From Myxococcota bacterium (lineage in GTDB: Bacteria; Myxococcota_A; Polyangia; Nannocystales; Nannocystaceae), in the NCBI GenBank assembly GCA_039028615.1, contig JBCCHT010000023.1, positions 32,001 through 96,000 of the forward strand: a stretch of 64,000 nucleotides of DNA. Direction: 5' to 3'. Positions 20,015-49,172 of this stretch are shown one piece after another. Under the pieces are notes generated by a model. It saw nothing but the letters and a program-made list of their open reading frames with translations. It made no database searches and was not told the origin of the DNA. Numbering within the stretch: position 1 is the first letter of the stretch; the number at the start of each line of letters is the position of its first letter. The position numbers and the translations under genes were made by a program.

Positions 20015-20041
20015 TAGTCCGCACGGGGGCACCCGTGATCA
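20015..20041 (-). promoter_or_regulatory. Putative ECF promoter TGATC-N16-GGACTA
   Basis: Same spacing and elements at 35569-35595 and 49146-49172; A7 tract upstream. Confidence 0.6.
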
Positions 20042-20150
20042 TGCGACCGGCGATTTTTTTGCACGAGGTGAACGGCTGATCACGGTGGATCCACCTCAGA
20101 GCCCGAATTCAGGCCATGAGCTGCTCCCAGCGGGCACACAGCAGGTCGAC

Positions 20151-20846
20151 CTAGGGCTCCGCGGCCAAGCCGGGGTAGCGGCCGAGCCCGTAACCCTCGT
20201 TGCACTCGACGACGACCCACCGCCCGTTCGCGAGGCGACCGACGTCGATCGAGAACCCGGCCACCGCCTCGTCGGTGCGACGCAGCCGGTTCAGGGCGTC
20301 GTCGAGGAACGCAGCCGGTGGCGCTTGGTCGTCCGCCCCGTGGTAGTGACACAGGCCGCGGACTTGGCCGTGCACGACGTAGGCACGGTACTCGGAGACG
20401 AACTCGACGACGGTGCTGCACTGCACCTCGAGGCGACCGGACGCGCCCTGAAAACGAAACGCGTCGTCGTAGCCGCCAAAGACGAAGCCGGTGAAGCGCT
20501 TGTCTTTGGCGAGCGGCTTGACGAACACGGGCAGGTCGCCCTCGTTGGTGAGCACGGCATCGACGGTGGAGGTCCACTGGCGTCGGCCCATCAAGGGAGC
20601 GAGCGAAGCGGGATAGGTCGGCAGGCGCTGCGCCTCGACCCCGAGCACCTTGAAGGCCGCGGCCATCATGTCGAGGTCTCCGGCGACGAGCGTGGTCGGG
20701 GACAGAGCCAGCTGCCGACGTCGCATCCGCTTGGCGGTGAAGGTCTGCACGTCGATACCACGCGCGGGCAGGATCTCGAGCACGGCCTGGGCCTCGACAT
20801 CGGGCCGGTTGGGGTCCACGACGTGGACGTAGGCGCGCTCGATCAT
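20151..20846 (-). CDS. ATP-grasp domain protein (DUF4343/R2K-like)
   Basis: VFVKP..KRFTG, EYRAYVVHG, DVG....WVVVECN. Confidence 0.75.
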   Translation of the reverse strand: MIERAYVHVVDPNRPDVEAQAVLEILPARGIDVQTFTAKRMRRRQLALSPTTLVAGDLDMMAAAFKVLGVEAQRLPTYPASLAPLMGRRQWTSTVDAVLTNEGDLPVFVKPLAKDKRFTGFVFGGYDDAFRFQGASGRLEVQCSTVVEFVSEYRAYVVHGQVRGLCHYHGADDQAPPAAFLDDALNRLRRTDEAVAGFSIDVGRLANGRWVVVECNEGYGLGRYPGLAAEP

Positions 20847-20877
20847 CGAAGGTCAGTGTAGACCAGTGTTGCTCGGA

Positions 20878-21219
20878 TCAAGTCACGTCCTGCCACGACC
20901 GAACGAACCGGACCACGATCCACGCAGCGGCGAGCAGCATCGAAGCGATGCCCAACGCGGTGAGCTTGGCGGCACGGATCACCCGGCCGTGCCTCGGGCC
21001 CAAGACCAAAGCACCGATGAAGGCCACATTCGCGGTGTTGAACAGCCGCACCGCGGTGTCTTCGGCCAACCACCAGGTCACCCGCTGGAGCGTTCCCGGG
21101 TCGACGTTGACGATGACGGCGTGGTCGTAGAGATCCGAGTATGTGAACACGAGCCAGCATCCGAAGACCCAAAGGGCCGGAAGCCAGATCTGGTGCCGAC
21201 GGGGCTCGGGGCTCTCCAC
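20878..21219 (-). CDS. Small membrane protein
   Basis: Three hydrophobic segments; start uncertain. Confidence 0.45.
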   Translation of the reverse strand: MESPEPRRHQIWLPALWVFGCWLVFTYSDLYDHAVIVNVDPGTLQRVTWWLAEDTAVRLFNTANVAFIGALVLGPRHGRVIRAAKLTALGIASMLLAAAWIVVRFVRSWQDVT

Positions 21220-21325
21220 GGTCGAAACAACGGGTGAATCGGCGCGTGCTTTCAGGCCCAACGCCGTCGATGAACCCCGCGGCCCGAGTCGAGCCGCAGG
21301 GTTCCGTTCGTCGGCGATCAGGAGC

Positions 21326-22348
21326 TCAGAACCCGGGCCCTTCGATCTCCCCCGCCTCGACCTCTTCGGCCGGCATGCCCATGGGGACATCGCTGGCCGG
21401 TAGCTCGGCGAGCGACACGATCGACCCGTCCTCGGCACGCGCGTGCAAGGCCCCGGACAGCGCCGCGCCGAGGGCGACGATGTCGTCGGAGGTCACGTCC
21501 TCGTCCTCCGGGTCGACCACGTGCTGCAGCGTGGTGCTGTACCCGAGCTGGGTCAGCTCGTTCTGCGTATTCTGGTAGCCGGCCAGGAACGCGGCGGGGG
21601 TCATCGACTGGGTCCAGGTGTGCTGACCGTTGACGGCGTTGTAGGTCCACAATCGCAGGGTCAACGAATCCACCGTCCACGGCACGGTCTGAGCGCACGC
21701 GACGAAGTCGTCGAAGAGCTGATGCGCGTTGCCGCCCTGGACGTGACAGGCCTGCGTGAGCGTGGGAGCACCCGGCGGTGTGGAAATGGTGACCGACTCG
21801 ATCATCGCGACTTCGGTGGCCCCGGTCGCGGTGGGAATGATGTAGTCGAAATAGGTGGGCGATCCCCAGCGATCCATGCCCAAGATCGCGATGGCGATGG
21901 TCTCGATGGGGCTGGGCGTCTCGGGGCACAGCCACTCCCCCGAACCGGGCTCGGGATCTCCTGCGGCATTCTCGTAGAGGAAGGGGCCGAAGAACGAGGG
22001 GTTGTTCTCCATATAGTTGAGGTCATCCGCGTGATGGCAGTGGACCCCCCAAGTACCCGCTTGGGGCACATTCTCGACGCCGTTGACGTTGATGCTGTAG
22101 TGCGGCGGGTTGTGGGTGACGATGTCCGGATCGGCGACCCCCTTCCAGTCGAGGGCGTGATAGCCGTACAGCGCGGTCTGTACGAGGGTATAGCCGGTCC
22201 CCGGATAGTTCATCGAGCCGAGGCCGGTGGGGGTGTAGGTGGTGACGGTCGGGGCCTTGTCGACCGAGGGGTCGACGATGCTGGACTCTCCGGCAAAGGC
22301 GGGCGTGGCCAGCAAGGCAAGGGCGAGCAGGGGGGCGTTTCGAAGCAT
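21326..22348 (-). CDS. Secreted hypothetical protein
   Basis: Signal peptide ending PAFA; AGGAG RBS; no family recognised. Confidence 0.75.
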   Translation of the reverse strand: MLRNAPLLALALLATPAFAGESSIVDPSVDKAPTVTTYTPTGLGSMNYPGTGYTLVQTALYGYHALDWKGVADPDIVTHNPPHYSINVNGVENVPQAGTWGVHCHHADDLNYMENNPSFFGPFLYENAAGDPEPGSGEWLCPETPSPIETIAIAILGMDRWGSPTYFDYIIPTATGATEVAMIESVTISTPPGAPTLTQACHVQGGNAHQLFDDFVACAQTVPWTVDSLTLRLWTYNAVNGQHTWTQSMTPAAFLAGYQNTQNELTQLGYSTTLQHVVDPEDEDVTSDDIVALGAALSGALHARAEDGSIVSLAELPASDVPMGMPAEEVEAGEIEGPGF

Positions 22349-22571
22349 GGGGGATTGACTCCTGTCGGGACGGGCCGCGACGTGCGGCCGGATACAGCGG
22401 CCAAACTGGCGTCCCCCCTCGGATTTGGCATCTGAACGCGATCTAAAACGAGGCATCAGAGGGGGCCTGGCGCCCGTGGTCGGGTCGATGGCCGCCCCTG
22501 CCCTGCTCCGCCGCCCACCGCCAATCCATCCCCGCGGTGAATGCACGCGTGCTCCATGCAAAACTGTCATC

Positions 22572-23471
22572 GTGCATCCCCATGCCGTGATCCAGTTGCC
22601 CGATGGTTCGGCTCATGAACTGGTGCCCGGAGACATCATCGGACGCATGCACACGGCGGCGCTCGTCGTGGACGACGGGCGGGTGAGCGAAGCCCACGCG
22701 ATGGTGAGCCTGCGGGGCGGCGATCTGCAGCTGCTGGGGCTGCGGGGCGCGTTCACGGTCGACGGGACTGCGCGCGACCAGGTAGTGCTGAAGACCGGGC
22801 TGCGGGTGGCGCTGGCCAAGGGCGTCGCCCTGCGCGTGCTGTCGGTGACGCTGCCCGACGATGTGCTGGGTCTCGAAGGACCCGACCTCCCGCTGCGTGC
22901 GCTGCCAGGGGTGTCGTCGATCGTGACGTCACCGCGGCTGCGCGTCGTTCGAGGCTGGGACGAACGCGCGACGGCGCGGGTCTGGAGCACGGGCGAGGCC
23001 TGGCGACTGCGCGTCGGTGACGGAGCCCACCGCCCGGTGGAGGCAGGCGACGAGATCGAGATCGACGGAGCGACCCTGCGCTTCCGGTCGATCCCGCTGT
23101 CGGGTGCGGGCCATAGCGCGACCCGCCGACCCGATCGCCCGGCCGCGTCGCTGACCATCGTGGCGAACTACGACTCGGTGCAGATCCACCGCGAAGGCCG
23201 GGTCGTGCTGCACTTCGGCGGGATCTTGGCGCGCTTGGTTTCGGAGCTGGTCGCGGTGCGAGGCCCGGTCGCGTGGCGAGTCTTGGCCGCGGAGCTGTGG
23301 CCGGATCAGGACGACGCGGCGGTGGTCCGCGGTCGGCTCGACGTCAACCTCAGCCGTCTGCGTCGCAAGTTTCGTGTGGCCGGGCTGCGCCCCGACCTCG
23401 TCCGCACCGATGGGGCCGGCCAAGTGGAGCTGGTGCTCGGGCCTCACGACACCATCGAGGACCGTACGTGA
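22572..23471 (+). CDS. FHA domain + C-terminal winged-helix transcriptional regulator
   Basis: FHA motif IGR...VSEAHA; C-terminal ELWPD...LDVNLSRLRRKF OmpR-like wHTH. Confidence 0.75.
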   Translation: MHPHAVIQLPDGSAHELVPGDIIGRMHTAALVVDDGRVSEAHAMVSLRGGDLQLLGLRGAFTVDGTARDQVVLKTGLRVALAKGVALRVLSVTLPDDVLGLEGPDLPLRALPGVSSIVTSPRLRVVRGWDERATARVWSTGEAWRLRVGDGAHRPVEAGDEIEIDGATLRFRSIPLSGAGHSATRRPDRPAASLTIVANYDSVQIHREGRVVLHFGGILARLVSELVAVRGPVAWRVLAAELWPDQDDAAVVRGRLDVNLSRLRRKFRVAGLRPDLVRTDGAGQVELVLGPHDTIEDRT

Positions 23472-26575: not shown

Positions 26576-26608
26576 AGTTCGTCGGCCCTCTGGTCTGCCG
26601 CCGAAAGC

Positions 26609-28114: not shown

Positions 28115-28174
28115 GGGAATCCACCAACGCTCCCATGATACCCCGCGTCCCGAGCATGAGCCCAGGCCCCGGAA

Positions 28175-28968: not shown

Positions 28969-31900
28969 CTACGACTCGAACAGGGCCACGATCCGGGCTT
29001 CATCGGGGTGCGTGAACACGGCCGGATCGGCCAGCGCCCTGCCGTCCAGATGTGCCCGAAGCGCCGCCAGGTCCCGCGTCGTTCGAGCATCGAGATCGAC
29101 ATTCGCCGTCGCCCCGAGCGCCCTGTCCAGCACCTCGCGGGCGGTTTCCCGATCGCCCGTCGCCAACAGCGACAGCGTCGACTCCACGGCCAGCTCACCG
29201 AACCCATAGCCGACCGCCCCCCGCTCGATGGCCTCGTCCAGCACTCGGATCCCGCGGATCTGGGCCCGAGCGTGATCGCCGAGCACATGCATCACGCGAA
29301 CCTCGACGCCCATGAATTCCACCTGCTCCAGGTCCCCGAGCGGGCCATCGCCGACGAGTTCAGCGCGACGCCGCCGAATCTCGTCGACATCGCCGTCCCG
29401 CAGCGCCTGCCGCAGGCGCAGCGCGAGCAGAGTGCTGCCCGCGCTGGCATCGGGTTGCCGCTGGAACAGCGCATCGAGCTGCGCGAGCGCATCGTCGAAG
29501 CGAGGGTCCCCCGCCCGCTCGAACACGTTGACGAGGGTGGCGCTCGGTGCCCCGACCCTCGGGTGGTCCTCCCCGAGCAACCGGTCGGTCCGCTCGATCG
29601 CACTGACGCACGCCCGCTCGGCCTCGGCGTGGCGCCCGGACAGCATCAGGGCTTCACACCGCAGAAGATCGAGGTCCGCCCGCCACGGATGATCTTCGTC
29701 GACCAGCGACTCGCGCAGCGCCTGAGCATCGTCGAGTCGCTTCAGGGCCTGGGTGTAGCGCCCGCGCCGTTGGTCGATGATCGCCAGGTTCTGCACGTTC
29801 ACGGCCGCGTTGCGCTTGGTGCCGAGCCCCCCCTGCACATGCATGCGCAGCGTCTCCTCGAAGATCGCCTCGGCCTCGTCGAGCTTGCCTTGCAATAGGG
29901 TCACCGCCCCCAGGTTGGAGAACGGCACCAGCCGATAGGGATGATCGGGACCCAGCGTGCGCTCGGCCTGCCGCAATGCCCGGCGCAGATACTCTTCGGA
30001 TTCGTTGTGGCGGCCCGGCCAGCGGATGAGCAGCACCCCGAGCTCGTCGTACAGGTTGGCGAGCCGAGGGCTCTCATCACCAAAGAACTCCTGCTCGAGT
30101 TCCATGGCGCCTTGCAGGAGCACCTCGGACTCTTCGAAGTTGCCCGACTCTCGCTCGAGGCGCGCGAACACAAGGCCGTGGATCACCCGCATGCGGCTGG
30201 AGACCAGCCCCTGGGCGACCCGCTGCGCGGCCAACTCGAGCAGGGAGCGGCTCACCGGGTAGCGCCCCACGCCGAGCTCGAGTTCGGCGAGGCGGATCAT
30301 CACCGTGGTCTCCAGCTCCCCACGCCCCGCCTTGGCGGCCAAGGCCATGGCGGAGTGCAGGCTCGCCCGGGCATCGTTCTTGTCGGTGTCGGAGAGTAGC
30401 TGGCCATGCAGCGCGCTCGCCCGGGCCATGCCGTCGATGTCTCCGGCGCTGCGAGCCAACTCGAGCGCGTCGAGAGCAGCCGGGATCCCCTCCTCCCGGC
30501 GCTCGAGGTTGAGAGAGGAGAGGCCATCGGCCAAGTGCGACTCGATCTCCAGCACCGTGTCGCGATCGAGCGGCGCGAGACCGGAGGCCTCGACCGGTTC
30601 GAGGCACTCCTTGGGTGCGGGCAGGCTCACCGCGCTACGGGTCGCGCTGCGAATGGTGGCCGCATCGGAGCGCTGGAGCTGAGTGGTCAACGCGGCCAGT
30701 CGGCGCAAGCGCTTGTCGAGGCAAAGCGACGCGGCCGAGAGCTGGGGCCGGTTGGCGCCCCCGTCGATCGTGGCCCGACACACATCGTGCCGAGCCTCCG
30801 CCCACTCTCCGGCCCAGGCCTCCACCGCCGTCTCAACGCGATCGGCCGTGTCCGCGGCATAGGCCAGCTCGGACGCCACCATGGAGTCCCGAATCTCGCC
30901 CCGTACGGTCGCGTTCCAGACCCCGTCGAGGGCGGGATGGGTCGAGCAGCTCGCGTAGCGTCCCTGGTCGATCTGGTATCCACCCAGACCCACGAGGCCC
31001 GCCGTGGCGACGGCGGCTGCGGCCATGAACCATCGGCGACGGCGTTGATGCGGGTCGTCGGCCAGCGCAGCGAGCAGCTCCCCCATCGACGCGAAGCGCT
31101 CCTCGGCCCGAGGAGCCAGGCCACGAGCGATCACGGCGGCGATCCAGCCCGGCACTCGCTCGGCGTCGAACGATGGTGGGTCCTGCCGTTTCGCGACGAG
31201 CAGCTCTCCGGCGGTGAGCCCATCGAAGGGCCGTCGACCGTGCAGCATCTCGTAGAGCGTCACGCAGAAGGCGTACTGATCGGCTCTCGCGTCGAGCGGG
31301 TCGCCGTTTTGTTGCTCCGGCGACATGTACGGGGGCGTACCCACGACGCTCGACGAGCCGAGCGGGCCCTTCTTCCCCGCCGCCCGGGCGACGTCGACCA
31401 GCCGCGACAAACCGAAGTCCATCACCCGCGGGTGCCCGTCCTCGTCGAACATCACGTTGGACGGCTTGAAGTCCAGGTGCAGGATCCCGCGCTCGTGCGC
31501 CGCACTCAGGCCCCGGCCCGCATCGGCCAGGACCCCCACGATCTCCTGATGACTCCGGGGTGCGGCCTCGACCCATTCTCGTAGCGATGACCCGGGCAAG
31601 AACTCCATCACGATGAACACCCCGCCCGAGGGTGCTTCGCCGACGTCGTACACCGTGGCCACATGGCGATGAACGACCTTGGCCATCGCCCGCGCCTCTT
31701 CGAGTAGATCGATTTCCTGCTCCCCGGCGGTGTCCAGCGTGCGTGCCGGCTCGATGTGCAGCAGCTTGATCGCGACCCGCCGCGCGAGCTCGGGGTCGTA
31801 GGCCTCGTAGACCGTGCCGAACCCACCCTGGCCCACGCGATCGACCACGACGTAGCGCCCCAGCTGCTCCGGCCGCGACTTGGCGGTGCTATCACCGAAG

Positions 31901-32013
31901 AGCAGGCCATCGACCTGGTCGAGCAACGCGATGTCCTGCATCGGATCGGAGCGACCCGCCCGGCGGAGCAATCGACGAAAACGATCGTCGGGGGCCTCTC
32001 CGCTGCTGCTCAC
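28969..32013 (-). CDS. Membrane Ser/Thr protein kinase with TPR repeats (non-RD)
   Basis: GQGGFG, AIK, HLDFKPSN, DFG, GTPPYMSPE; LGPDHP repeats; 4-bp overlap with sigma gene. Confidence 0.92.
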   Translation of the reverse strand: MSSSGEAPDDRFRRLLRRAGRSDPMQDIALLDQVDGLLFGDSTAKSRPEQLGRYVVVDRVGQGGFGTVYEAYDPELARRVAIKLLHIEPARTLDTAGEQEIDLLEEARAMAKVVHRHVATVYDVGEAPSGGVFIVMEFLPGSSLREWVEAAPRSHQEIVGVLADAGRGLSAAHERGILHLDFKPSNVMFDEDGHPRVMDFGLSRLVDVARAAGKKGPLGSSSVVGTPPYMSPEQQNGDPLDARADQYAFCVTLYEMLHGRRPFDGLTAGELLVAKRQDPPSFDAERVPGWIAAVIARGLAPRAEERFASMGELLAALADDPHQRRRRWFMAAAAVATAGLVGLGGYQIDQGRYASCSTHPALDGVWNATVRGEIRDSMVASELAYAADTADRVETAVEAWAGEWAEARHDVCRATIDGGANRPQLSAASLCLDKRLRRLAALTTQLQRSDAATIRSATRSAVSLPAPKECLEPVEASGLAPLDRDTVLEIESHLADGLSSLNLERREEGIPAALDALELARSAGDIDGMARASALHGQLLSDTDKNDARASLHSAMALAAKAGRGELETTVMIRLAELELGVGRYPVSRSLLELAAQRVAQGLVSSRMRVIHGLVFARLERESGNFEESEVLLQGAMELEQEFFGDESPRLANLYDELGVLLIRWPGRHNESEEYLRRALRQAERTLGPDHPYRLVPFSNLGAVTLLQGKLDEAEAIFEETLRMHVQGGLGTKRNAAVNVQNLAIIDQRRGRYTQALKRLDDAQALRESLVDEDHPWRADLDLLRCEALMLSGRHAEAERACVSAIERTDRLLGEDHPRVGAPSATLVNVFERAGDPRFDDALAQLDALFQRQPDASAGSTLLALRLRQALRDGDVDEIRRRRAELVGDGPLGDLEQVEFMGVEVRVMHVLGDHARAQIRGIRVLDEAIERGAVGYGFGELAVESTLSLLATGDRETAREVLDRALGATANVDLDARTTRDLAALRAHLDGRALADPAVFTHPDEARIVALFES

Positions 32014-32636
32014 GACGCTTCGTCCTCGTCCGATCGATCGCGCAGCGACCCGGCCCAGCGCTCGAGGTTGCCGACCGTGCTCTCGCGCAGGGCCGGATCA
32101 TCGGTGAGCTGCTCGACCGTGGCCTGCAGCTTCTCGCGCGCCCGCCGAAGCCGGCTCTTGACCGTGCCCCGCGGGATCCCCATCACCTCCGCGATGGCCC
32201 CCGTGCCCAGGTCTTCCCAGTAGTGCAGCTCGATGACCAGCTGCAGATCGAGGGGCAGTCGTCGGAGCGCTTGGAGCAACAAGCGTTGCTCGGCCGCCTG
32301 GGCCACCGCCCGCGACGGGGTCACATCGTTGGCCGGCGTGCCCTCGGAGACCGCGTCCTTTCGGCCTCGCATCGACTTCTTGCTCTGGCGCAGCCACGTC
32401 ACCAGCACGCGCCGCGCGATGCCCAGCAGGTAGACCCGGAACTCCAGATCGCCGGGCACCCGGTCCCGCGATTCGACCGCGCCCAGCATCGTCTTTTGCA
32501 CGAGGTCGGCGATTCGATCGGACGGCACCTTGTCGCGAAAGAAGCGCGAGAGCATCGGTAGATGGCGGCGAAGCAGCAAGCTACCCGCGTCTCGCTCCCC
32601 GTCGCGCCATCTCCGCAGCAGCTCGATGTCCGCCAC
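32010..32636 (-). CDS. ECF RNA polymerase sigma factor
   Basis: DLVQKTML, FRVYLLGIARR, IAEVMGIPRGTVKSRLRRAR. Confidence 0.9.
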   Translation of the reverse strand: MADIELLRRWRDGERDAGSLLLRRHLPMLSRFFRDKVPSDRIADLVQKTMLGAVESRDRVPGDLEFRVYLLGIARRVLVTWLRQSKKSMRGRKDAVSEGTPANDVTPSRAVAQAAEQRLLLQALRRLPLDLQLVIELHYWEDLGTGAIAEVMGIPRGTVKSRLRRAREKLQATVEQLTDDPALRESTVGNLERWAGSLRDRSDEDEAS

Positions 32637-32780
32637 TTCCCACAGGATTCCACGTTCCTACGTTTTTTTCACGGAACGGTGATCCATTCCGACGCTTTTA
32701 CGAACCCCCCAACAGAGCCCGACCCCGAAGCGAGCCCTCCCCGCATTTCCGCAGCCAGCTGCGCCTCCCGGATCCCCTTC

Positions 32781-33920
32781 ATGATGCGTCCGTTCACCGC
32801 CCGCTGCCTGGGCTGCCTCGCCCTGCTCGCGCTCGCCAACTGCGGCACCACGGACCGCGACGACAACCCCTTCGATAGCTCTGCGCTGGAGACCGCGACC
32901 ACCAACGGCGCCAGCGAGGACTCGACCATGGGCGGCAGCGGGGAGGGCCAAGCCGACGGCAGCGGCTCCAACTCGGCCGACGGCACCGACGACGGCGATG
33001 ATGATGATGACGGCACTCCCAAGCTCGACATCATGGGCGGGGCCGACGATGGCATCGGCGAGCAGGAGGGCTGCCGGGGCATCGATTTCCTGTTCGTGAT
33101 CGACAACTCGGGCTCGATGGAGGACGAGCAGGCCAACTTGCTCGCGAGCTTCCCCGGCTTCGTGCAGGCCATGCAGGGTGCGTTGGCCGAATCGGCCCAG
33201 AGCTTCCGCGTGATGGTGGTCGACACCGACGGCATCGGTACCGGCTGCGCCCCCATCTGCGACATGTTCGGCCCCATGGGCTACTGCAGCGGCATCTCCT
33301 GCGCCGGTGAGCAGTGTGACGTCAACGTGGGCGGAGGCAACACGGTCAACCGCTCCAACGGGAGTGACTGTGGTCTACCCGGGGGCAGACGCTACGCCGA
33401 CACGGCGGACACCGACATCACCAGCGCCTTCAACTGCATGGCCCGAGTCGGCACGACCGGCAGCGGCGTCGAGCTCGTCGCCGACAGCCTCCAGACCGCC
33501 CTGTCCCCCGACTACCTCGGTGCGGGTGGCTGCAACGCCGAGTTCATTCGCGACGACGCCGTCCTGGTGGTCACCATCATCACCGACGAAGACGACGCGG
33601 GCAACGACCCCTACATGACCAGCCCGGGCGAACCCGCCGGTTGGTACAACGACTTGGCCGCGGTCAAGAACTACGACCCCGATGCCGTCGTCGTGCTCGG
33701 CCTGCTCGGCGACACCAACGAGCCCGGCGGCATCTGTACGCCCTACGAAGACGGCACGGGCGACGGGGCCGAGAACGCCACGCGACTGCGGGAGTTCGTA
33801 CAGCTATTCGGAGACAAAGGCCTGCTCGGCAGCGTCTGCGCGCCCAACTACACCTCGTTCTTCGACGAGGCCGTGGGGCTCATCGACACGACCTGCCAGG
33901 ACTTCGAGCCGGAGGGGTAA
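32781..33920 (+). CDS. Cys-rich lipoprotein with VWA-like domain
   Basis: Lipobox LANC; IDFLFVIDNSGSM MIDAS-like motif; ITDEDD. Confidence 0.8.
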   Translation: MMRPFTARCLGCLALLALANCGTTDRDDNPFDSSALETATTNGASEDSTMGGSGEGQADGSGSNSADGTDDGDDDDDGTPKLDIMGGADDGIGEQEGCRGIDFLFVIDNSGSMEDEQANLLASFPGFVQAMQGALAESAQSFRVMVVDTDGIGTGCAPICDMFGPMGYCSGISCAGEQCDVNVGGGNTVNRSNGSDCGLPGGRRYADTADTDITSAFNCMARVGTTGSGVELVADSLQTALSPDYLGAGGCNAEFIRDDAVLVVTIITDEDDAGNDPYMTSPGEPAGWYNDLAAVKNYDPDAVVVLGLLGDTNEPGGICTPYEDGTGDGAENATRLREFVQLFGDKGLLGSVCAPNYTSFFDEAVGLIDTTCQDFEPEG

Positions 33921-34756: not shown

Positions 34757-35521
34757 TCACTCCGGGGTGCCCGACTCCGAGCCGGACCCGGAGTCCGAGC
34801 CCGACTCCGAGCCTGAGTCGGAGCCTGAGTCCGCCCCCGAGTCCGAAGAGCCCTCGGTCGCGTTGCCCGTCGAGTCACCTTCGCTGCCGCCGGTCCCTCC
34901 CGTGCTCGCTTCGGTGGCCGACTCGGTCTCGGCGTCCGTGTCGGTGGCTTCGCCCGCGTCACCGGTCGACGTCGGCATGTAGTCACACGAGTCGGGATCG
35001 TTGGGAGACCCGCCGACGTTGCACCCCGGGCTCTTGTTGTGGACGAGCACGCCGTTGGCGACGAAGTTGTGGAGCTCGGACTCCACCGTGATGTCGAATA
35101 CCCGATGCACGCCAGCGTCGGTCCGCACCGCTTGGACGCGCACGACCTCGGTGCCCTGCTCGTTCACCCGCAGCATCGTCTCGGCCTTGCCCTCCAAGAA
35201 GCTCACCGCCGGGAGGTAGGTGCCCGTCTCCGCCACGTACACGGGGTGATCGGGCGTGCACACCAACGACGTGGAGCCGAGCTGCAGCGTCAGGCACTCC
35301 CGCGTCGCCGTGCGTATCGCCGTCACCCGCGTGGCATGACGCTCTCCGCTGCCCGGATCCACCGCCCACACGAGATCGCCGACCGCCAGCGTCTCGATCG
35401 CGCGCAGCCCCGAGGGCGTGGCCACCCGCGCTCCCTCGGCCACACACGAGGTTTCTTCAATAATGCAGCCCGAGGTCAGCGCCAGCGCCCCGAGCCCCGC
35501 GATCGTCCATCGAATGTTCAT
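34757..35521 (-). CDS. Lipoprotein with Hint (bacterial intein-like) domain and acidic low-complexity tail
   Basis: Lipobox TSGC(19); Hint C26 (CVAEG) ... TPDH ... VFDITV..HNFVANGVLVHN162. Confidence 0.88.
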   Translation of the reverse strand: MNIRWTIAGLGALALTSGCIIEETSCVAEGARVATPSGLRAIETLAVGDLVWAVDPGSGERHATRVTAIRTATRECLTLQLGSTSLVCTPDHPVYVAETGTYLPAVSFLEGKAETMLRVNEQGTEVVRVQAVRTDAGVHRVFDITVESELHNFVANGVLVHNKSPGCNVGGSPNDPDSCDYMPTSTGDAGEATDTDAETESATEASTGGTGGSEGDSTGNATEGSSDSGADSGSDSGSESGSDSGSGSESGTPE

Positions 35522-35568
35522 GACCAAGTCCTGAGCGAGCAACGAGCCCACCACCGGACTCACGACGA

Positions 35569-35595
35569 TAGTGCCCCCACGGCGCGTCACGATCA
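35569..35595 (-). promoter_or_regulatory. Putative ECF promoter TGATC-N16-GCACTA
   Basis: Repeated motif; A6 tract upstream; about 48 nt before Hint lipoprotein ATG. Confidence 0.6.
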
Positions 35596-35629
35596 CGCGG
35601 ATTCGTCGTTTTTTGCCCCCGCGGCGGAA

Positions 35630-40472: not shown

Positions 40473-40882
40473 GATCGTTTCTCTCTATCGACGCGGTCGC
40501 CATCACGGCGCCGCTCGAGAGGACCCGTGCGGCAAAACCCGGTGAACAATTTGTTCCGCGAGAGAAAAAAACGACGGGCCGACTCACGGTCAAAAAATGG
40601 CCATGACGAAACATGATCGACCTTCACGTGTACGAGGAAATCGTTGCGTTGATTGCAACGGCGGACAGGCCGATTGTTCGCGGAAGAACTCGTTCCGGGG
40701 TCACCAACTGTGACCAAAATACTCCACCGCAGAGCGGCCTTCGCCGATATGCATGGGGTCGAATGAAGGAGAAATCTGCGCAAGACGCCCTCGGCAAATT
40801 CGTCGGCCTTCACTCCCCTGCCTTTGCTCACCAACCGAAGCGCCACGGCTGCGGCCACGAGCGCTCGTGCTAGCTTGCCGAG

Positions 40883-41500
40883 GTGGAACGCGAATGTGAA
40901 CTCGTCGACGCCTGGCGGTCGGGCGACGAGCAAGCCGGGGAAGCGCTGGTGGAAGCGTACTTTCCCGCGCTTCATCGCTTCGTTCGCAACAAGATCGACC
41001 ACGGGGTCGAAGACCTCATCCAGTCCACGTTCCTCGCGTGCCTCGAGGGTCGCGATCGCTTCGAAGGGCGCTCGAGCTTCCGCGCCTACCTGTTTGGAAT
41101 CGCGCGTCACCTGCTCTATGAGCGATATCGCAAGAAGGCCACGCACGGGGCTGATTTCGTGGCCGAGCGCAGCTCGGTGGCCGACCTCGAGACCGGGGTG
41201 AGCACGCTGGTCCGCCGCCGCTCCGACGAAGAGCAGCTGTACCGGGCGCTGCGCTGCATCCCGGTGGAGCAGCAGCTCATCCTCGAGCTGTACTTCTGGG
41301 AGTCGATGACCGCGCGCGAGATCGGTGAGGTCCTCGATCAACCCGAGGGCTCCATCCGCACCAAGATCCGACGCGCCCGCCTCCAGCTGCGCGAGCGACT
41401 CGAGGCCGAGGGCAGCGAGACCTTCGACTCGATCCCCGTCGGCGGTGGCATCGAAGCCTGGGCCAACTCGATCCGCGAGCGCTGGAAGCCGCCCGCGTAG
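40883..41500 (+). CDS. ECF RNA polymerase sigma factor
   Basis: EDLIQSTFL..FEGRSSFRAYLFGIAR; EIGEVLDQPEGSIRTKIRRAR. Confidence 0.9.
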   Translation: MERECELVDAWRSGDEQAGEALVEAYFPALHRFVRNKIDHGVEDLIQSTFLACLEGRDRFEGRSSFRAYLFGIARHLLYERYRKKATHGADFVAERSSVADLETGVSTLVRRRSDEEQLYRALRCIPVEQQLILELYFWESMTAREIGEVLDQPEGSIRTKIRRARLQLRERLEAEGSETFDSIPVGGGIEAWANSIRERWKPPA

Positions 41501-41506
41501 CCGACC

Positions 41507-44500
41507 ATGGACATCGACGAGCCCACCACCGCCCCGCTGTCGACGGAGGCCGAGCACCCGGGCCCCTCGGGGACGCCTCAGGGGCCGAGCGACCTCGATG
41601 CCGAGGCGGTGCGGGCCGCCGTGTTCCGCGATCTGTTTCCACGCCGCTTCGACCGGGTGCTCCTCGGTCGCTACACCCTGCTGCACAAGCTCGGTGAGGG
41701 CGGCATGGGGGTCGTCTACGCCGCGTACGACGACGTGCTCGACCGCAAGGTCGCGGTGAAGTTCATCCACACTCGGCAGGCCCATCGCAGCACGGCCCAG
41801 GCGCGGCTGCTTCGCGAGGCCCGGGCCATGGCTCGCGTATCCCATCCCGCGGTGGTCACGGTCTTCGACGCGGGGCGTACCGACGAGCACGTGTTCATCG
41901 CCATGGAGTTCGTGGAGGGGCGCTCGCTGTCCAAGTGGATGGAGGAGGGGTCTCACCCCTGGCGGGACGCCCTGTCGCTGTTCATCGCGGCCGGTCGCGG
42001 GCTGGCGGCCGCGCACGGAAACGGCGTGGTGCACCGCGACTTCAAGCCGGGCAACGTGCTCATCGATAGCCACGGGCGGGCCAAGGTTGCGGACTTCGGC
42101 CTGGCCGGGCTCGAGGCGGGCGAGCCTCGTCCCATCGAGAGCACCAAAAACAGCGAAGCCGAGTCGGCCCTGACACGAACGGGGGCGGTGATGGGCACGC
42201 CTGCGTATATGGCTCCCGAGCAGTTCGCTGGCGAGGCGGCGACGCCCGCCTCCGACCAGTTTTCGTTCTGTGTCGCGCTATTCGAGGCGCTGTTCGGGGC
42301 CCGCCCCTTCGACGGGCAGAGCCTGCGCGCGCTCGAAGCCAACGTGAAGGCAGGCCGGCTGCTCTCCCCCCTGCCCCCCGCCGAGGTGCCCACGCGGCTG
42401 AAGGACATCGTCATGCGAGGGCTGTCGAGCTCGCCCTCGGAGCGCTTCGAGTCCATGGAGCAGCTCGTCGCCGCCCTCGAGCAGTCTCGCCGTGGTCGCT
42501 GGCAACGACCCTCCACGGTGGGGCTGGCCGGGGTCGGCCTGGGGAGCCTCGCGTTGCTCGGCGGGCTGGCCTTGCAGGAGCCGACGACGAGCCCGTGCTC
42601 GGGTGGCCGTCAGCAACTCGAAGGGGTGTGGGATCCCGAGCAGCGGCAGCGGATGGTCGATGCTCTGTCCGCCGTCGATCGTCCCTACGCCGAGGGCACC
42701 GCCACCGGGGTCGCCGAAGGCCTGAGTACGTACGCCGACGCATGGGTCGCGGGCTTCGAAGATGCCTGCCTGGCCACCCGCGTGCGCGGCGAGAGCTCGG
42801 AGACCCTGCTCGATCGCCGCATGGGCTGCCTCCAGGGCCGACGACGCGAGCTTTCGGCCCTGGTCGACGTCCTCGCCGAGCCCGACCCTCGAGTCCTCCG
42901 CGGAGCGGTCGAGGCCGTCGAGTCGTTGCCCGCGGTGCAGCGCTGCGACGACATCGACTACGTGCTGGCCGAAGTGCCACCGCCGGGCGCCGAGCGGGCC
43001 CCGGCCATCACCGCGGCCGAGGTCGAGATCTCCGAGGTCCGGGCCCGTCGACGGGCCGGCCTCTACGACGCCGCCGCGACCAAGAGCGCGAAGGTGCTCG
43101 AGCAGGCTCGTACCTTGGAGTATCGCCCGCTGGTGGCCGCCGCCCTGGTGGAGCACGCCGCGGTGCTCGAAGGCCAGGGAAACTACGCCGAAGCCCGCGA
43201 GCACTACCAGCGGGCCTACGCGGTCGCCGACGAAGTCGGCGCGGACGAGCACCGCCTCGATGCCGCGCTCGGGGTGGTCACCGTGACCGCGCAGCACCTG
43301 CGGGAGACCGACGCGCTGCAGCCCTGGGACGCCCTGGCCCCGGCCGCGTGGCGCCGGATCGGCGAGCCTCCGTTGCGCGAAGCCGATCTTCGCCTCGCTC
43401 TGGGCACCGGGTCCTATCTGCGGGGGAACCTCGACGATGCGATCGAGCAGCTTCGCCGCGCGCTCGAGGTGGTGATGCGAACTCGCGGCTCGGGCCTGCA
43501 CGCGGCGAGAGTCCGAGGCCAGCTGGGCACCGTGCTCTCCGACAACAGCGAGCGGGAGGCGGCCGAGGTGCAGCTGCGGCAAGCGCTGGACATTCGGCTG
43601 GCCGAGCAGGGCCCCGACCATCCCGACGTCGCCGCGGCCCATCGTGAGCTGGGCACCTTGCTCATGCTCGGAGACGACCCCGCCCCGGCCGCGGCCAGCC
43701 TACGCGAGGCGCTGCGGATCCAGCTCGAAGCTTTGGGGTCCGAGCACCCGGAAGTCGCGATCACCCGCAACCAGCTCGGTCGGGTGCTCCAGCTCCAGGG
43801 CGAACTCGAGGCCGCGCTGTCCGAACTCCGCAAGGCGCAACAGATCGCCGGCCAGAGCCTCGGCGGCGAGCACCTCGTGGTCGGACGGCTCCACAAGGAC
43901 ATGGGCAGCGTGCTCATCGAGATGGGTCGCATCGAGGAGGGCCTCGACGAGCATCGACGCTCCCTCGAGCACATGCGGGCGGCGTTCGGCCCCGAGCATC
44001 GAGCCCCGGTCATCGTGCAGCTCAGCTTCGGGCAAGCCCTCGCTGCGCACGGTCGGCACGCCGAGGCGCTCCAGGAGCTCGGGGAGGCGCGCGACGTGGC
44101 GCGCTCCGGGCTCGGGCCCGACGACATGCTGCTGGGCTTCATCCTGCACGGGATCGGCCGCAGCCACGAAGCCACCGGGCAGCTCCAGCAGGCGGGCGAC
44201 GCCTACCGAGAGGCGCTGCGGGTCCGCCGAGCGGTCGAGCCGAGCGACCCGGCCGCGATCGCGCAGAGCCGAGCCTTCCTTGCGCACACGATGGCTCGTT
44301 CCGGGCGCGGGGAAGAGGCGCTCGAACACGCGGAAGCGGCCATGGCGTACCTCGACGACCCCGACATCGGGCCCATGGCTCGGGTCGCCAAGGCCGAGGC
44401 TCGGCTCGGGATGGGTCGCGAGTCGGACGACGCTCTCGCCGTTCTTCGCGAGGTCCGAGCCGCCACGAAGGACCCCTGGCTACGCGCGCGAATCGACGAG

Positions 44501-44527
44501 AGCCTGGCCGGTCCACCCCCGCAGTAG
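41507..44527 (+). CDS. Membrane Ser/Thr protein kinase with TPR repeats
   Basis: GEGGMG, HRDFKPGN, DFG, GTPAYMAPE; GPDHPDVA repeats; 6 bp after sigma gene. Confidence 0.93.
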   Translation: MDIDEPTTAPLSTEAEHPGPSGTPQGPSDLDAEAVRAAVFRDLFPRRFDRVLLGRYTLLHKLGEGGMGVVYAAYDDVLDRKVAVKFIHTRQAHRSTAQARLLREARAMARVSHPAVVTVFDAGRTDEHVFIAMEFVEGRSLSKWMEEGSHPWRDALSLFIAAGRGLAAAHGNGVVHRDFKPGNVLIDSHGRAKVADFGLAGLEAGEPRPIESTKNSEAESALTRTGAVMGTPAYMAPEQFAGEAATPASDQFSFCVALFEALFGARPFDGQSLRALEANVKAGRLLSPLPPAEVPTRLKDIVMRGLSSSPSERFESMEQLVAALEQSRRGRWQRPSTVGLAGVGLGSLALLGGLALQEPTTSPCSGGRQQLEGVWDPEQRQRMVDALSAVDRPYAEGTATGVAEGLSTYADAWVAGFEDACLATRVRGESSETLLDRRMGCLQGRRRELSALVDVLAEPDPRVLRGAVEAVESLPAVQRCDDIDYVLAEVPPPGAERAPAITAAEVEISEVRARRRAGLYDAAATKSAKVLEQARTLEYRPLVAAALVEHAAVLEGQGNYAEAREHYQRAYAVADEVGADEHRLDAALGVVTVTAQHLRETDALQPWDALAPAAWRRIGEPPLREADLRLALGTGSYLRGNLDDAIEQLRRALEVVMRTRGSGLHAARVRGQLGTVLSDNSEREAAEVQLRQALDIRLAEQGPDHPDVAAAHRELGTLLMLGDDPAPAAASLREALRIQLEALGSEHPEVAITRNQLGRVLQLQGELEAALSELRKAQQIAGQSLGGEHLVVGRLHKDMGSVLIEMGRIEEGLDEHRRSLEHMRAAFGPEHRAPVIVQLSFGQALAAHGRHAEALQELGEARDVARSGLGPDDMLLGFILHGIGRSHEATGQLQQAGDAYREALRVRRAVEPSDPAAIAQSRAFLAHTMARSGRGEEALEHAEAAMAYLDDPDIGPMARVAKAEARLGMGRESDDALAVLREVRAATKDPWLRARIDESLAGPPPQ

Positions 44528-44541
44528 TCCGGCCGCCGCGG

Positions 44542-45516: not shown

Positions 45517-45561
45517 CGCCGATGAACGCTCCGAGCATTGCGCGTGAACGTAGCACGGCGC

Positions 45562-48411
45562 TCATTCGAGCCGATGCGTCTCGAGCCACTGCTCGAACGC
45601 GGCGAGCTGTGCGGTGTGCTCTCCGGGGGAGGCCCGCAACACCGCCGCGGCATCTTCGACCAATGCCCGGCCGCGAGCTCGATCTCGCTGGTCGCCTTCG
45701 ATATCCCACAAGATGGCACCGAGCATCTGGCCCACGTTGCCTCGGTCGCGAGCGACGACGTCTTCGCGACCGTAGAACCGAGTCCAGGTCTCCTCGGCGA
45801 GCGCGAGAGCGGGCTCCAACCGACCCGCACTCACCATCGCAGTCGCCAGGCTGTCCCGTATCTCCGCCATCTTTGGATGATCTGGCCCCTGGGCGTCCTC
45901 CCAACGAGCCATGACCTCTCGGTACTCCGACTCGGACTCCGCGTGCTTGCCTTGCTCCGAGAGCGATTTGGCGAGCGTGAGCTGCACGTCCACGACGTTG
46001 GGGTGACCGGGGTCCATCACCTTCTCCATCGACCTCAGCACGGCTCGATACTCGAGCTCGGCCTCGGCGTCCTTGCCGGCTGCGCTGAGCAGGGTTGCGA
46101 GGTTGTGGCGCGCCCCCAGGACATACGAATGCTCCGGTCCGAGCGAGCGTTCCCACGATTCCAACGCGGCCCGAAACTCCGCCTCCGCCGGCTTGCCCTG
46201 CTGAGCGAGCACGCTGGCGAGGTTGTTGCGGGTGAGCGCGACCTCGGGGTGGTCGGGGCCCACGAGTCTTTCCCTGAGCACCAGCGCCTGTCGGTACAGG
46301 TCCTCCGCCTCGGCGAACTTCTGCTGGCGCTGCAAGGCGATGGCGAGCTGGATCTGCGCGGTCGAGGTCCTCCGCTCTTCGAGCTGAAGCTCGCCCGGCG
46401 GTCGCTCGAGCACCGCCCGGTACTCGGCCTCGGCTTCGGCGTACTTGCCTTCGATCTCGAGCACGCTGCCGAACAGGATCCTCGACCACGCCTCGCGACG
46501 GGGATCGCCACGCACCAACCCCTGGACCAGCGGCCAGTAGCGACGCGCTTCCGAGCTCCGCCGCTGACGCTTTCCCACGAGCGTCATCATGCGTATCGCG
46601 GCATCGGCGAGCAGCTCGCGGTACCAGCCCTCGGTCGCGCGCTGGAGAGCGACTTCGTAGGCCTCGCCGGCCTCCTCGTAGTCGCCCAAGACCTCGAGCA
46701 CGTGCCCCTCGAGGAGCTTCTGCTCGACGAGGATCGGGCCATAGGTCACGTCGGAAAGCAGCGCAGCGGCGGCTTCGGCCTCGCGCTGCGCTGCGTCGTA
46801 GCGCCCCGCCAGTCGCTCCGCTCGCACGCGGGCGAGTCGCTGCTGGGCCCGCGCCACCACCTCGGCTTCTTCGGGGAGCGGGGGCTCGACATCGGCCTCG
46901 AGCGCGTCGGTATCCGAGCAGCGCGACAGCGGCCGCAGACCCGCGACGAGCTTGTGCGCCTTGTCGACGACCTTGGTGTCCGCGTTGGCCAGCGTGTCCA
47001 CCGTCGCGCCGAGATCCACCGAAGCACGGTGCAAGCACGCCATGCGCAGATCGAGCAGGCGCTGCGACTGCTCGCGACGCACCGCGGTCGCCTCACACGC
47101 CTCGGTGTGCAGCGTCACCCAGGACTCCGCGTAGTCGTCGAGCACTCGCCCGGTTCGGGTCCACACGTCTTCGACGTAGGGCCGCTCGACCGCCGTGAAC
47201 GACGCTTCCACCTCGGCCCGACGGGCCTCGTCCCAGACCCCCTCGAGCTTCGCCCGCGCCCCGACGCAGGGCTCGGCGCGACGATTGACCCAGCCATGAG
47301 CCGCGGTGCCCCCCAGGCCCAGCACCGCCACCCCCAGCAGACCCAGGGTCCAGACCTGGCGGCGCCGCCCGGGGTCCAACCGCAGGGCGCCGAGCAGGAC
47401 GTCCATCGAAGGCCATCGCTCCGCTGGCACCGCTGCCAGCCCGCGTCGAAGCGCATCCGTGACCGCGCGCGGCAACGCAGGCGCCCCCGATGGCCAAGGC
47501 GGCGGACCCTCGAGCTTGGCGAGCAGCAGCTCCTCGAAGGTCGTGCCCGCGAACGGTCGAGTCCCGGTCAGCCCCTCCCACAACGCCACACAGAAGCCGT
47601 ATTGATCGCTGTGCTCGTCGACCGCCGTGCCCTCGTGCTGCTCCGGCGACATATAGGCCGGAGTCCCGACCACCACTCCCGCCTGGGTCAGCGCCTCGAA
47701 CGTCGACGAGGCGGAAAGGTCCGAAGTGTCGTCGACGTCGATGTCTTCGGCTGCGCTCGACTCGCGGGCGAGCCCGAAGTCCAGCACCTTCACCACCCCG
47801 TCCTCGGTTCGCATCACGTTGTGGGGCTTGAAGTCGCGATGCACCAACCCCGCCCCGTGGGCCGCCGCCAGCCCTCGGCCGGCTTCGACGTAGGCCGCCA
47901 GGAGGTCTTGCCACGGCGGGCTGGACCGCTGCCAGTCGCCCAGACTCTCGCCGCGCACGAACTCCATCGCCACGAAGACATGACCTTCGCTACGACCCAC
48001 CTCGTGCACGGTGACGACGTTGGGGTGCGAGAGCCGAGCGAGGGCTTGCGCCTCCCGCCACAGCCGCTGCTCGTCCTCTTCGCGGCCCAGTCGATCGACG
48101 CGGAGCACCTTGATCGCGATCTTGCGGTCGAGGTGCGGATCGTAGGCCGAATACACCAGGCCCATGCCGCCCGCCCCGAGGCGATCGAGCATCGTGAAGC
48201 GACCCATGCGAACGACGGCCAAGCCCTCGCCCTCGCCCTCGCCCTCGCCCGGCAACGAGTCGAGCCCGTCCTTGGCCGTGTCGTGCCCGGGGTCGTCGAC
48301 GGGGCGGGTCTGTTGCTCCCACCGCGCGCCCCCAACCGGCGCCGCGGCTCGGGTGTCCTCGTCGTCGAGTCCCGCCGACGGTGGCGCGCTGTCGTCATCC
48401 CCTGGCGCCAC
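45562..48411 (-). CDS. Membrane Ser/Thr protein kinase with TPR repeats (no adjacent sigma factor)
   Basis: GAGGMG, HRDFKPHN, DFG, GTPAYMSPE; GPDHPEV repeats. Confidence 0.92.
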   Translation of the reverse strand: MAPGDDDSAPPSAGLDDEDTRAAAPVGGARWEQQTRPVDDPGHDTAKDGLDSLPGEGEGEGEGLAVVRMGRFTMLDRLGAGGMGLVYSAYDPHLDRKIAIKVLRVDRLGREEDEQRLWREAQALARLSHPNVVTVHEVGRSEGHVFVAMEFVRGESLGDWQRSSPPWQDLLAAYVEAGRGLAAAHGAGLVHRDFKPHNVMRTEDGVVKVLDFGLARESSAAEDIDVDDTSDLSASSTFEALTQAGVVVGTPAYMSPEQHEGTAVDEHSDQYGFCVALWEGLTGTRPFAGTTFEELLLAKLEGPPPWPSGAPALPRAVTDALRRGLAAVPAERWPSMDVLLGALRLDPGRRRQVWTLGLLGVAVLGLGGTAAHGWVNRRAEPCVGARAKLEGVWDEARRAEVEASFTAVERPYVEDVWTRTGRVLDDYAESWVTLHTEACEATAVRREQSQRLLDLRMACLHRASVDLGATVDTLANADTKVVDKAHKLVAGLRPLSRCSDTDALEADVEPPLPEEAEVVARAQQRLARVRAERLAGRYDAAQREAEAAAALLSDVTYGPILVEQKLLEGHVLEVLGDYEEAGEAYEVALQRATEGWYRELLADAAIRMMTLVGKRQRRSSEARRYWPLVQGLVRGDPRREAWSRILFGSVLEIEGKYAEAEAEYRAVLERPPGELQLEERRTSTAQIQLAIALQRQQKFAEAEDLYRQALVLRERLVGPDHPEVALTRNNLASVLAQQGKPAEAEFRAALESWERSLGPEHSYVLGARHNLATLLSAAGKDAEAELEYRAVLRSMEKVMDPGHPNVVDVQLTLAKSLSEQGKHAESESEYREVMARWEDAQGPDHPKMAEIRDSLATAMVSAGRLEPALALAEETWTRFYGREDVVARDRGNVGQMLGAILWDIEGDQRDRARGRALVEDAAAVLRASPGEHTAQLAAFEQWLETHRLE

Positions 48412-48565
48412 CAGGAAATCTTTTCATCGATACCCGTGCCTTGGCAACGAAGCACCATCGCGCCAGAGGTCTCCAGCGGGACGTCGTTTTCTTCGCCCTC
48501 CCGCGAAAAGGCCGGGTCCCCTCGGAGACCCGGCCCGTGCTCGAGATCGATGGGAGGTCTCGAGG

Positions 48566-49135
48566 CTACTGGACGGCCTCGATCTCGATGGTCACCGCGT
48601 CGTCGCTGAAGTTGGCGGCACGAAGACCGCGGGAGAAGTAGTCGGCGTAAAAATCTACCGTCCACGTCAGGCGTACTTCGGCCGCGGGCTCCTCACCGAA
48701 GTACTCGAAGCGCATCCGCTGGGGCTCGGCGCAGCTGCGACCCGAGCCGCCCCAGTCGTCGTCGAGCCGAAGATCGAACGCGAGGTCGTCACCATCCTCT
48801 CCCCATTCGTCGATCTGTTGCGGAGCATCGAGATCCAGTTGGTCTTCGAAGCGCTCTTCGTCGCCCCCCTCGAGCAGGCCTCGGAGCAGACCGCCTCGCT
48901 CGCCCCCCGTGACCTCGACGTCCGCGTTCACGAAGATGGTGGTACTGCTGATGCTGTCGACGCGACGGGGGATGTCCATGCACACCGTGACATCGAACTC
49001 GGCGATTGAATCGGCCGCGGTCATCGTGACTTCGGGGCCTTGCACTTGCTGGTGGACATGCGGCGGCGAGCAAGCAGCGGCCGCCAAGAGCATTCCGCAC
49101 AACAACGACCGGGGATTCAGCTCGAGCATTTTCAT
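48566..49135 (-). CDS. Hypothetical lipoprotein
   Basis: Lipobox AAAC; beta-rich acidic domain; alternative ATG 49129. Confidence 0.7.
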   Translation of the reverse strand: MKMLELNPRSLLCGMLLAAAACSPPHVHQQVQGPEVTMTAADSIAEFDVTVCMDIPRRVDSISSTTIFVNADVEVTGGERGGLLRGLLEGGDEERFEDQLDLDAPQQIDEWGEDGDDLAFDLRLDDDWGGSGRSCAEPQRMRFEYFGEEPAAEVRLTWTVDFYADYFSRGLRAANFSDDAVTIEIEAVQ

Positions 49136-49145
49136 CGTGATCCGG

Positions 49146-49172
49146 TAGTGCCCCGAAGGACGTCGACGATCA
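49146..49172 (-). promoter_or_regulatory. Putative ECF promoter TGATC-N16-GCACTA
   Basis: Third copy of the motif, AT-rich upstream, very short leader. Confidence 0.6.

Follow-up and report, generated by a model that had tools for sequence, protein, structure and literature searches.

The window analysed here is a stretch of 64,000 nucleotides from a Myxococcota bacterium of the family Nannocystaceae (GenBank assembly GCA_039028615.1, contig JBCCHT010000023.1, positions 32,001 to 96,000 of the forward strand), which belongs to contig C23 of a 12.27 Mb genome with 68% GC, called G000 below. It carries three minus-strand copies of the bipartite motif TGATC-N16-G[CG]ACTA, each upstream of a predicted lipoprotein gene, as well as three genes for sigma factors of the extracytoplasmic function (ECF) type in the neighbourhood of Hanks-type kinase genes. 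The motif copies stand where the first-pass annotation had placed them and in the orientation it had given; 0.02 would be expected by chance and none of 100 shuffled sequences contained three or more. Its description of their surroundings also holds: the spacers are mutually unrelated, an A/T tract lies 5' of every site (20060-20053, 35614-35609 and 49191-49177), and the in-frame ATG of an open reading frame (ORF) with a lipobox follows 34, 47 and 10 nt on (starts at 19980, 35521 and 49135). The three proteins do not match one another, in agreement with their description as non-homologous lipoproteins, and the second contains a Hint domain. The sites, assigned to promoter classes that are defined below, and their target genes are as follows (TM, transmembrane).

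20013..20041, minus strand: site 1, promoter-like motif of class C, TGATCA-N15-GGACTACC; likely reader the paralogue G000 C41:6167-6811
20053..20060, minus strand: A-tract 5' of site 1, possibly an UP element
19318..19980, minus strand: target 1, predicted lipoprotein of 220 aa (VSAG-C23), no Pfam or NCBIfam family
35567..35595, minus strand: site 2, motif of class A, TGATCGT-N14-GGCACTATC counted from the -35 element, 33.4 bits; likely reader the paralogue G000 C54:71525-72142
35609..35614, minus strand: A-tract 5' of site 2
34757..35521, minus strand: target 2, predicted lipoprotein of 254 aa (LTSG-C19) with a Hint domain (C26, TPDH, HNK)
49144..49172, minus strand: site 3, motif of class A, 29.5 bits; mRNA predicted to be leaderless or nearly so, because the ATG lies 10 nt past ACTA
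48566..49135, minus strand: target 3, predicted lipoprotein of 189 aa (AAAA-C22), motif before 6 of the 7 homologues found
45562..48411, minus strand: Hanks kinase-TM-TPR gene, 155 nt 3' of target 3 on the same strand, possibly co-transcribed from site 3

The motif in the genome and its target genes

Recurrence of the motif beyond the window, on which the proposal of a regulon depended, was found genome-wide. The pattern TGATC-N16-G[CG]ACTA has 19 matches at the 16-nt spacer compared to 0-6 at 14 other spacers; 16 of the 19 are intergenic and 15 point in sense direction to the next gene, according to our own codon-model gene calls. With a motif matrix, which was trained on the same sites it then scored, the true spacing yielded 37 matches of at least 20 bits, whereas six shifts yielded 0-3. 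Positions outside the search pattern are conserved as well, the C two bases past ACTA being present in all 69 pooled class A sites. The motif thus shows the features of ECF promoters, i.e., it is bipartite with a fixed spacer, intergenic, in sense orientation and kept before homologous genes. Moreover, the association with the kinase-linked ECF family asserted in the first-pass annotation is supported by its position: matrix matches of at least 15 bits occur within three genes of 7 of the 96 family sigma genes and of 1 of 142 other sigma genes, motif-like sites within two genes of family sigmas number 9 compared to 0-1 at other spacers, and near the family sigmas of relatives YRATC-N17-NACT was found 22 times compared to 3-8 at other spacers. 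Judged from these sequence patterns, (c)gTGATC-N17-[C/G]ACTA is very probably the -35/-10 promoter of the kinase-linked ECF family.

The conservation before homologues differs between the three targets. In all three cases the spacers have changed in those homologues which carry the motif. The single homologue of target 1 (in genome G001) keeps a class C site including both differences from class A. Hint protein homologues, present in 15 of 72 relatives, carry the motif in 2 of 16 cases; both are among the 5 from genomes that have the C54 orthologue, and none is among the 11 from genomes that lack it. The Hint domain of target 2 begins 7 residues past the lipidated Cys and ends with HN-K before a low-complexity tail, and could cleave itself off a short lipopeptide.

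The enrichment of lipoprotein genes downstream of the motif, which had been anticipated, is clear: 21 of 33 target genes encode a lipobox-like sequence compared to 633 of 2929 sampled genes (22%), and 29 of 33 are predicted to be exported compared to 1257 of 2929 (43%). These calls were made by an own heuristic for 35 non-coding sites of at least 18.5 bits, two of which have no downstream ORF. Of the 69 pooled class A sites, 19 are followed by an ATG at 7-10 nt from ACTA, whereas eight other 4-nt windows gave 0-10, a distance peak which suggests that class A mRNAs are often leaderless. A TANNNT peak 6-9 nt 5' of start codons, in about 10% of genes, points to widespread leaderless transcription in this myxobacterium.

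An unbiased bipartite word scan of intergenic DNA gave an output dominated by a dispersed repeat, and word enrichment near family sigma genes brought up A/T tracts alone. The repeat, a palindromic family of about 65-75 copies (window 13920-13965 and many intergenic regions), dominates the intergenic word counts.

Promoter spellings and paralogue clades

The sites fall into three spellings, class A (TGATCG[T/A]..GGCACTAYC), class B (TGATCGGTT..CACTAA, absent from the window) and class C (TGATCA..G[G/T]ACTAYC), each of which co-occurs and co-locates with one clade of sigma paralogues. The strict class A motif is present in 28 of 73 genomes of the bacterial family and in none of the reversed controls; an orthologue of the sigma C54:71525 (at least 74% identity, next best 68%) is likewise found in 28 of 73, and 27 genomes hold both. 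In 8 of 28 genomes a strict class A site lies within 7 kb of the C54 orthologue, where about 0.2 would be expected by a hand estimate, and in the genera g10, g13 and g27 the neighbourhood of the sigma-kinase pair comprises class A sites (one to three), genes for small lipoproteins, a VWA gene and a conserved gene of unknown function. Among 40 class A loci fetched of about 140 matches the C54 orthologue occurs in 4 and no other single sigma recurs more than twice; tandem sites were fetched first, which biases this count and leaves the 8 of 28 unaffected. The relaxed pattern YGATC-N17-CACTA gave 12-20 matches each in five genomes without the C54 orthologue, which by eye had no class A flanks and were taken as coding background.

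The conserved core of the putative class A regulon (L162:2346-5585, i.e., G000 C54; also L121-L128, L140 and L171) consists of a gene for 520-540 aa without Pfam or NCBIfam family (RALLHPLWL..NDH), a VWA lipoprotein gene that follows it and genes for small Cys-rich lipoproteins divergent from it.

Of the 17 genomes that have an orthologue of the sigma C41:6167 (E 3.1e-71 or better), 14 contain class C TGATCA sites, as do 4 of the 56 that lack it; for these four, two have their sites inside called genes and one genome is 72% complete. Site and orthologue are at most 8 kb apart in 8 of 17 genomes, the orthologue is found in 6 of 20 fetched class C loci (of 37 matches), and the C41-type sigmas form one clade. 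Class B precedes the operon of its own paralogue C3:88541 in 5 of 5 genomes. Clade-wise footprinting yielded shared words with unrelated spacers for class B and for a weak TGATCC-N15-GGACC set only, the rest being plain sequence conservation. Taking co-occurrence and co-location together, it is likely that sites 2 and 3 are read by the C54 paralogue and site 1 by the C41 paralogue. This departs from the first-pass annotation in two respects. The three sites do not form a single regulon, sites 2 and 3 belonging to class A and site 1 to class C with two paralogues as likely readers; and these probable readers are not local, both being encoded on other contigs, while the genome profile of the window sigma at 15820-16437 mismatches the class of site 1.

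The paralogues differ at residues for which base preferences have been published. In the following, residues are numbered by alignment to E. coli RpoE and the -13 register follows from an own 17-nt count from TGATC. The C54, C41 and C3 sigmas all have Arg171 and an Arg at the Phe175 position, which were linked to C-31 and T-32 (PMC7776599). At the Asn84 position the class A and B clades have S/A or D/E and the class C clade has K/R, and the base at -13 is C in classes A and B and G in class C. Sums made in this analysis from Dataset S3 of PMC7776599 give, for C-13, a preference of 0.62 with Ser and of 0.74 with Asp, and for G-13 one of 0.51 with Lys. The -13 base therefore tracks the residue at the Asn84 position as in the published mutagenesis, and the sequences fit this code in part. 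The proposal that the -10 element provides the paralogue specificity is accordingly to be kept for C or G at -13, which follows the Asn84 equivalent, and to be widened, since the base after TGATC differs as well, being A in class C and G in the other two classes.

Some further arrangements of sites and sigma genes were noted. At L163:3772-7603 (G000 C3) a divergent pair of class B sites is flanked on one side by a peptidoglycan-binding / KAP NTPase (QatA-like) gene and on the other by a 97-aa ORF, kinase and sigma. Four genomes of genus g27 (L214:8038, L215:8015, L217:3035, G032:C377:1861) have a class C promoter just past the 3' end of the sigma gene on the opposite strand, pointing into the sigma gene, possibly as antisense feedback or as a relic; in L218 and L220 the same promoter precedes a lipoprotein gene convergent on the sigma gene. 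In G000, two sigma loci have private CAATC spellings in duplicate: at C5:194565 one sigma is flanked on either side by CAATCGACTCGG..GGACTACCG, and at C21:161899 a tandem CAATCAAAC..CGACTCA adjoins a sigma whose Ser172 position is occupied by Asn, a residue tied to A at -34 in Dataset S3 of PMC7776599.

Sigma factors, partner kinases and competing explanations

The sigma factors of the window, their kinases and two variant sites proposed in the first-pass annotation are listed here.

15820..16437, minus strand: family ECF sigma 1, divergent from a kinase gene, unlikely to read site 1
16635..19352, plus strand: Hanks kinase with a TM-like segment and TPRs, start codon uncertain
28969..31941, minus strand: Hanks kinase-TPR gene, 3' of sigma 2
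32010..32636, minus strand: family ECF sigma 2
32680..32706, plus strand: variant TGATC-N16-CGAACC before the lipoprotein gene 32781-33920, unsupported as a promoter
40522..40548, minus strand: variant TGTTC-N16-CGGGTC, unsupported as a promoter
40883..41500, plus strand: family ECF sigma 3, with TAGCTT 7 nt before its start
41507..44527, plus strand: Hanks kinase-TM-TPR gene, 3' of sigma 3

Both variant strings are present as written, but their motif-matrix scores are -9.8 and -31.3 bits, and no enrichment of TGATC-N17-GAACC or TG[AT]TC-N17-GGGTC at this spacing was seen, either around family sigmas or in other places, so that their role as promoters could not be upheld. For the adjoining sigmas 2 and 3, searches of 72 relatives (E 1e-60 and 1e-65) yielded no orthologue.

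The window sigmas are members of a family of about 96 paralogues in the genome (91 in another search) with a median identity of 37%. The family was found in 18 of 18 genomes of the same bacterial family and in 0 of 12 genomes of other families (E 1e-30), and its named homologues are from Nannocystaceae. The proteins have the make-up of group 4 ECF sigma factors, consisting of sigma2 and sigma4 only in about 200 aa with matches to the Pfam r2 and r4 domains; TIGR02937 is above its cut-off, with no subfamily model above cut-off among the matches listed. The predicted structure is a normal ECF fold (matching AlgU and RpoE) with two extra C-terminal helices at 182-200, including an invariant W192. 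A DAED-like acidic patch with at least two acidic residues is retained in 90 of 96 family sigmas (DVDD in the C54 sigma), and 84 of 96 have a Ser or Thr at one column of the end of the sigma2-sigma4 linker. TANNNT lies 5-9 nt before the start of 44 of 96 family sigma genes compared to 9.7% of genes.

A Hanks kinase gene adjoins 61 of 96 family genes, compared to 15 of 142 other sigma genes and 7.8% of genes, and lies at +1, at -1 or divergently; typically it encodes a kinase-TM-TPR protein. The partners of C54, C3 and C41 have a hydrophobic segment following the kinase domain, those of C54 and C3 have TPRs, and 37 of 64 adjacent kinases exceed a crude TM threshold. The catalytic loop HRD.KP.N (own pattern) is present in 52 of 64. 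Of 15 aligned partner kinases (alignment A3), 14 have in front of the kinase domain a conserved helix that ends in LFG and is a candidate sigma-docking element. Structure prediction of a kinase-sigma complex scored 0.55 compared to 0.00 for the best control, with runs sharing at least 50% of contacts and a partner pLDDT of 73. In the benchmark, 116 of the 157 solved pairs and 2 of the 215 mismatched ones reached this mark, 18 of the former and both of the latter with scores of at most 0.60, hence the model lends weak support to docking of kinase and sigma.

The sequence GCACTACCAT that precedes the kinase gene at window 16545-16556 (plus strand) is conserved at two orthologous loci (CACTACCAT, CACTACCAC); it is best read as a housekeeping TANNNT and suggests a kinase start 5' of 16635. 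At the window end, a 303-aa sigma of another family (63778-64000, plus strand) is divergent from a kinase gene (61550-63748, minus strand).

Taken as a whole, the motif is likely to be the promoter of a Nannocystaceae family of about 96 mostly kinase-linked ECF paralogues, individual members of which would read their own spelling and be activated by their kinase. The sigma genes would be expressed constitutively from leaderless promoters of housekeeping type. A periplasmic signal would be bound by the TPR domain of the kinase, and the active kinase would dock onto and phosphorylate its own sigma, most likely at the Ser/Thr-rich end of the sigma2-sigma4 linker, because the acidic DAED patch is unaltered. 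Once active, the sigma would transcribe about 30 dispersed genes in the case of class A and a few in the case of classes B and C, most of them encoding lipoproteins, and about a quarter of the class A mRNAs would be leaderless. For the activation step itself the analogy to EcfK, which is phosphorylated on the linker residues Thr104/Thr106/Ser108/Ser110 outside the DAED region (PMC13147305), makes phosphorylation by the kinase rather probable. More tentatively, the whole might represent a receptor-kinase network of up to about 100 TPR kinase/ECF pairs of an unclassified ECF group, with a linker-phosphorylation switch after docking on the kinase helix, a retained DAED and a promoter insulation by one or two bases that can be read from the genome.

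A number of observations weigh against this interpretation. In G000 the class A sites are scattered, with a family sigma no more than 4 kb away in 3 of 29 cases (background 7%); the linked target block keeps its class A site (C54:2181) but is 69 kb away from the C54 sigma, and no class A site is listed in the fetched flanks of the C54 orthologues of G000, G002, G003 and G005. The class A profile reflects one clade of genera (all 6 genera that have the orthologue and 1 of the 11 that lack it), so that genome counts are not independent; for class C this objection of kinship is partly answered, because in the genera g4, g14, g28 and g29 the sole genome with the C41 orthologue has a class C site. 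Genome G081 has the C54 orthologue without a strict site, G015 has one site without the orthologue, and in G001 (72% complete) three class C sites but no C41 orthologue were found. Regarding the residue-base code, Dataset S3 of PMC7776599 favours G and not A at -12 for Ser and Asp, weaker local sites obey the Asn84 rule only in part (by eye), and the combination of R/K171, S/G/T172 and R175 also occurs in 5 of the 142 sigmas outside the family. A rule in which Ser172 pairs with TG and Thr172 with CA at -35/-34 was suggested by the sigmas of this genome (Ser: 9 TG, 0 CA; Thr: 7 CA, 2 TG) and was dropped, as it was not replicated in 130 sigmas of six relatives (Ser: 1 TG, 1 CA; Thr: 1 CA, 0 TG) and Dataset S3 gives G for Thr (PMC7776599). 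Finally, 35 of 96 family sigma genes have no adjacent kinase, and an intact DAED gives no known reason why the sigma should be inactive without phosphate.

The strongest competing explanation shares promoters and readers with the phosphorylation model. In it the kinase is a membrane anti-sigma factor that releases the sigma on a signal, or the sigmas are active when made; we regard this as less probable, though a serious rival. Sequestration would proceed via the N-terminal RAxLFG helix of the kinase or the C-terminal Trp helix of the sigma. This explanation would agree with the retained DAED-like patch, the conserved kinase N-terminal helix and the C-terminal helices around W192, and the weak complex score cannot separate docking from sequestration. 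Against it stand the retention of the HRD.KP.N loop in most adjacent kinases, the linker phosphorylation of EcfK (PMC13147305) and the frequency of Ser or Thr at the corresponding column here.

It is very unlikely that the window sigmas read all three sites and the variants, or that many family members read broadly with little discrimination. The enrichment of motif-like sites within two genes of family sigmas would fit such reading, and cross-talk is plausible because the sigma4 recognition helices are alike across the family. The window sigmas were nevertheless rejected as readers on the basis of genome profiles: sigmas 2 and 3 occur in 1 of 73 genomes whereas class A occurs in 28, and the 14-genome profile of sigma 1 omits the class C genomes G001, G032, G036 and G037 and includes G004, G005, G017, G013 and G034, which are all without class C. 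Furthermore, sigma 1 has Glu at the Asn84 position and is therefore predicted to prefer C at -13, not the G of site 1.

Least probable of all is an ECF reader from outside the family, such as an ECF11-like one recognising GTGATC (PMC7826278), or an activator site on a housekeeping promoter: five non-family sigmas have compatible sigma4 residues and ACTAYC contains TA like the TANNNT common in the genome, but the last T of TANNNT is present in just 13% of class A sites, by which the housekeeping -10 reading was rejected, the -10 element of ECF11 is CGTA, none of the five candidates has a site above 10.2 bits nearby, and among the fetched class A loci the C54 orthologue alone recurs more than twice.

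Relation to known kinase-linked ECF groups

No literature account of the sigma family or of the motif was found, in a search which did not extend to Datasets S1-S2 of PMC7776599 and the ECF Hub, where the motif could be held; in the accessible part of the supplement of PMC7826278 there is no mention of Plesiocystis, Enhygromyxa, Nannocystis or Haliangium. The closest parallel is ECF43 with EcfP/PknT of Vibrio parahaemolyticus and EcfK/PknS of Xanthomonas citri. As in the family described here, the sources report no anti-sigma factor, an adjoining Hanks kinase that has a single TM helix and TPRs outside the cytoplasm, an N-terminal extension of the kinase and a Ser/Thr-rich linker end (PMC8999054, PMC13147305, PMC7826278). 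In contrast, DAED is replaced by S/T in ECF43 and kept here, for which reason the family is not ECF43. ECF43 moreover has the Sigma70_ECF domain, whereas r2 or r4 outscore PF07638 in all three window sigmas, and the variable kinase position, the about 96 paralogues per genome, the distinct spellings and the dispersed regulons set the present family apart.

ECF283 likewise has a neighbouring TM kinase and a Ser/Thr-rich linker end proposed as the phosphosite, but its predicted promoter is CCTT / AG compared to TGATC / ACTA here (PMC7826278). The -35 element GTGATC of ECF11 (RpoE/ChrR of Rhodobacter sphaeroides) nearly equals the (c)gTGATC found here, in which the G precedes TGATC in 61% of class A sites and belongs to the consensus of classes B and C; the -10 elements differ (CGTA and [C/G]ACTAYC), as do the regulators, a ChrR zinc/cupin anti-sigma factor in ECF11 and a kinase here (PMC7826278), and the similarity of the family profile to PDB 2q1z is only 6e-11. 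Lineage-specific groups with a nearby kinase and proposed phosphorylation, like the family here, are ECF59, 61, 62 and 217, stated for Planctomycetes only, as well as the myxobacterial ECF210 and ECF267, stated for Sorangium/Chondromyces/Sandaracinus. Unlike here, ECF267 possesses an anti-sigma factor of the FecR-like type, and the promoters of ECF61, 210 and 267 are stated as not conserved (PMC7826278).

Phosphorylation of the sigma factor is described for ECF43 alone, and section 3.4 of PMC8999054 states that kinase-linked ECFs which keep DAED are an open case. The family would add a variant of kinase-linked ECF signalling with a real promoter family of ECF type. It offers three named sets of sigma, kinase and promoter that can be tested together, a natural test of how cross-talk is avoided among about 96 paralogues and an independent check of the published residue-base code. 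Moreover, it provides a first regulon for an unstudied myxobacterial lineage, comprising about 30 mostly unknown exported proteins whose mRNAs may often be leaderless.

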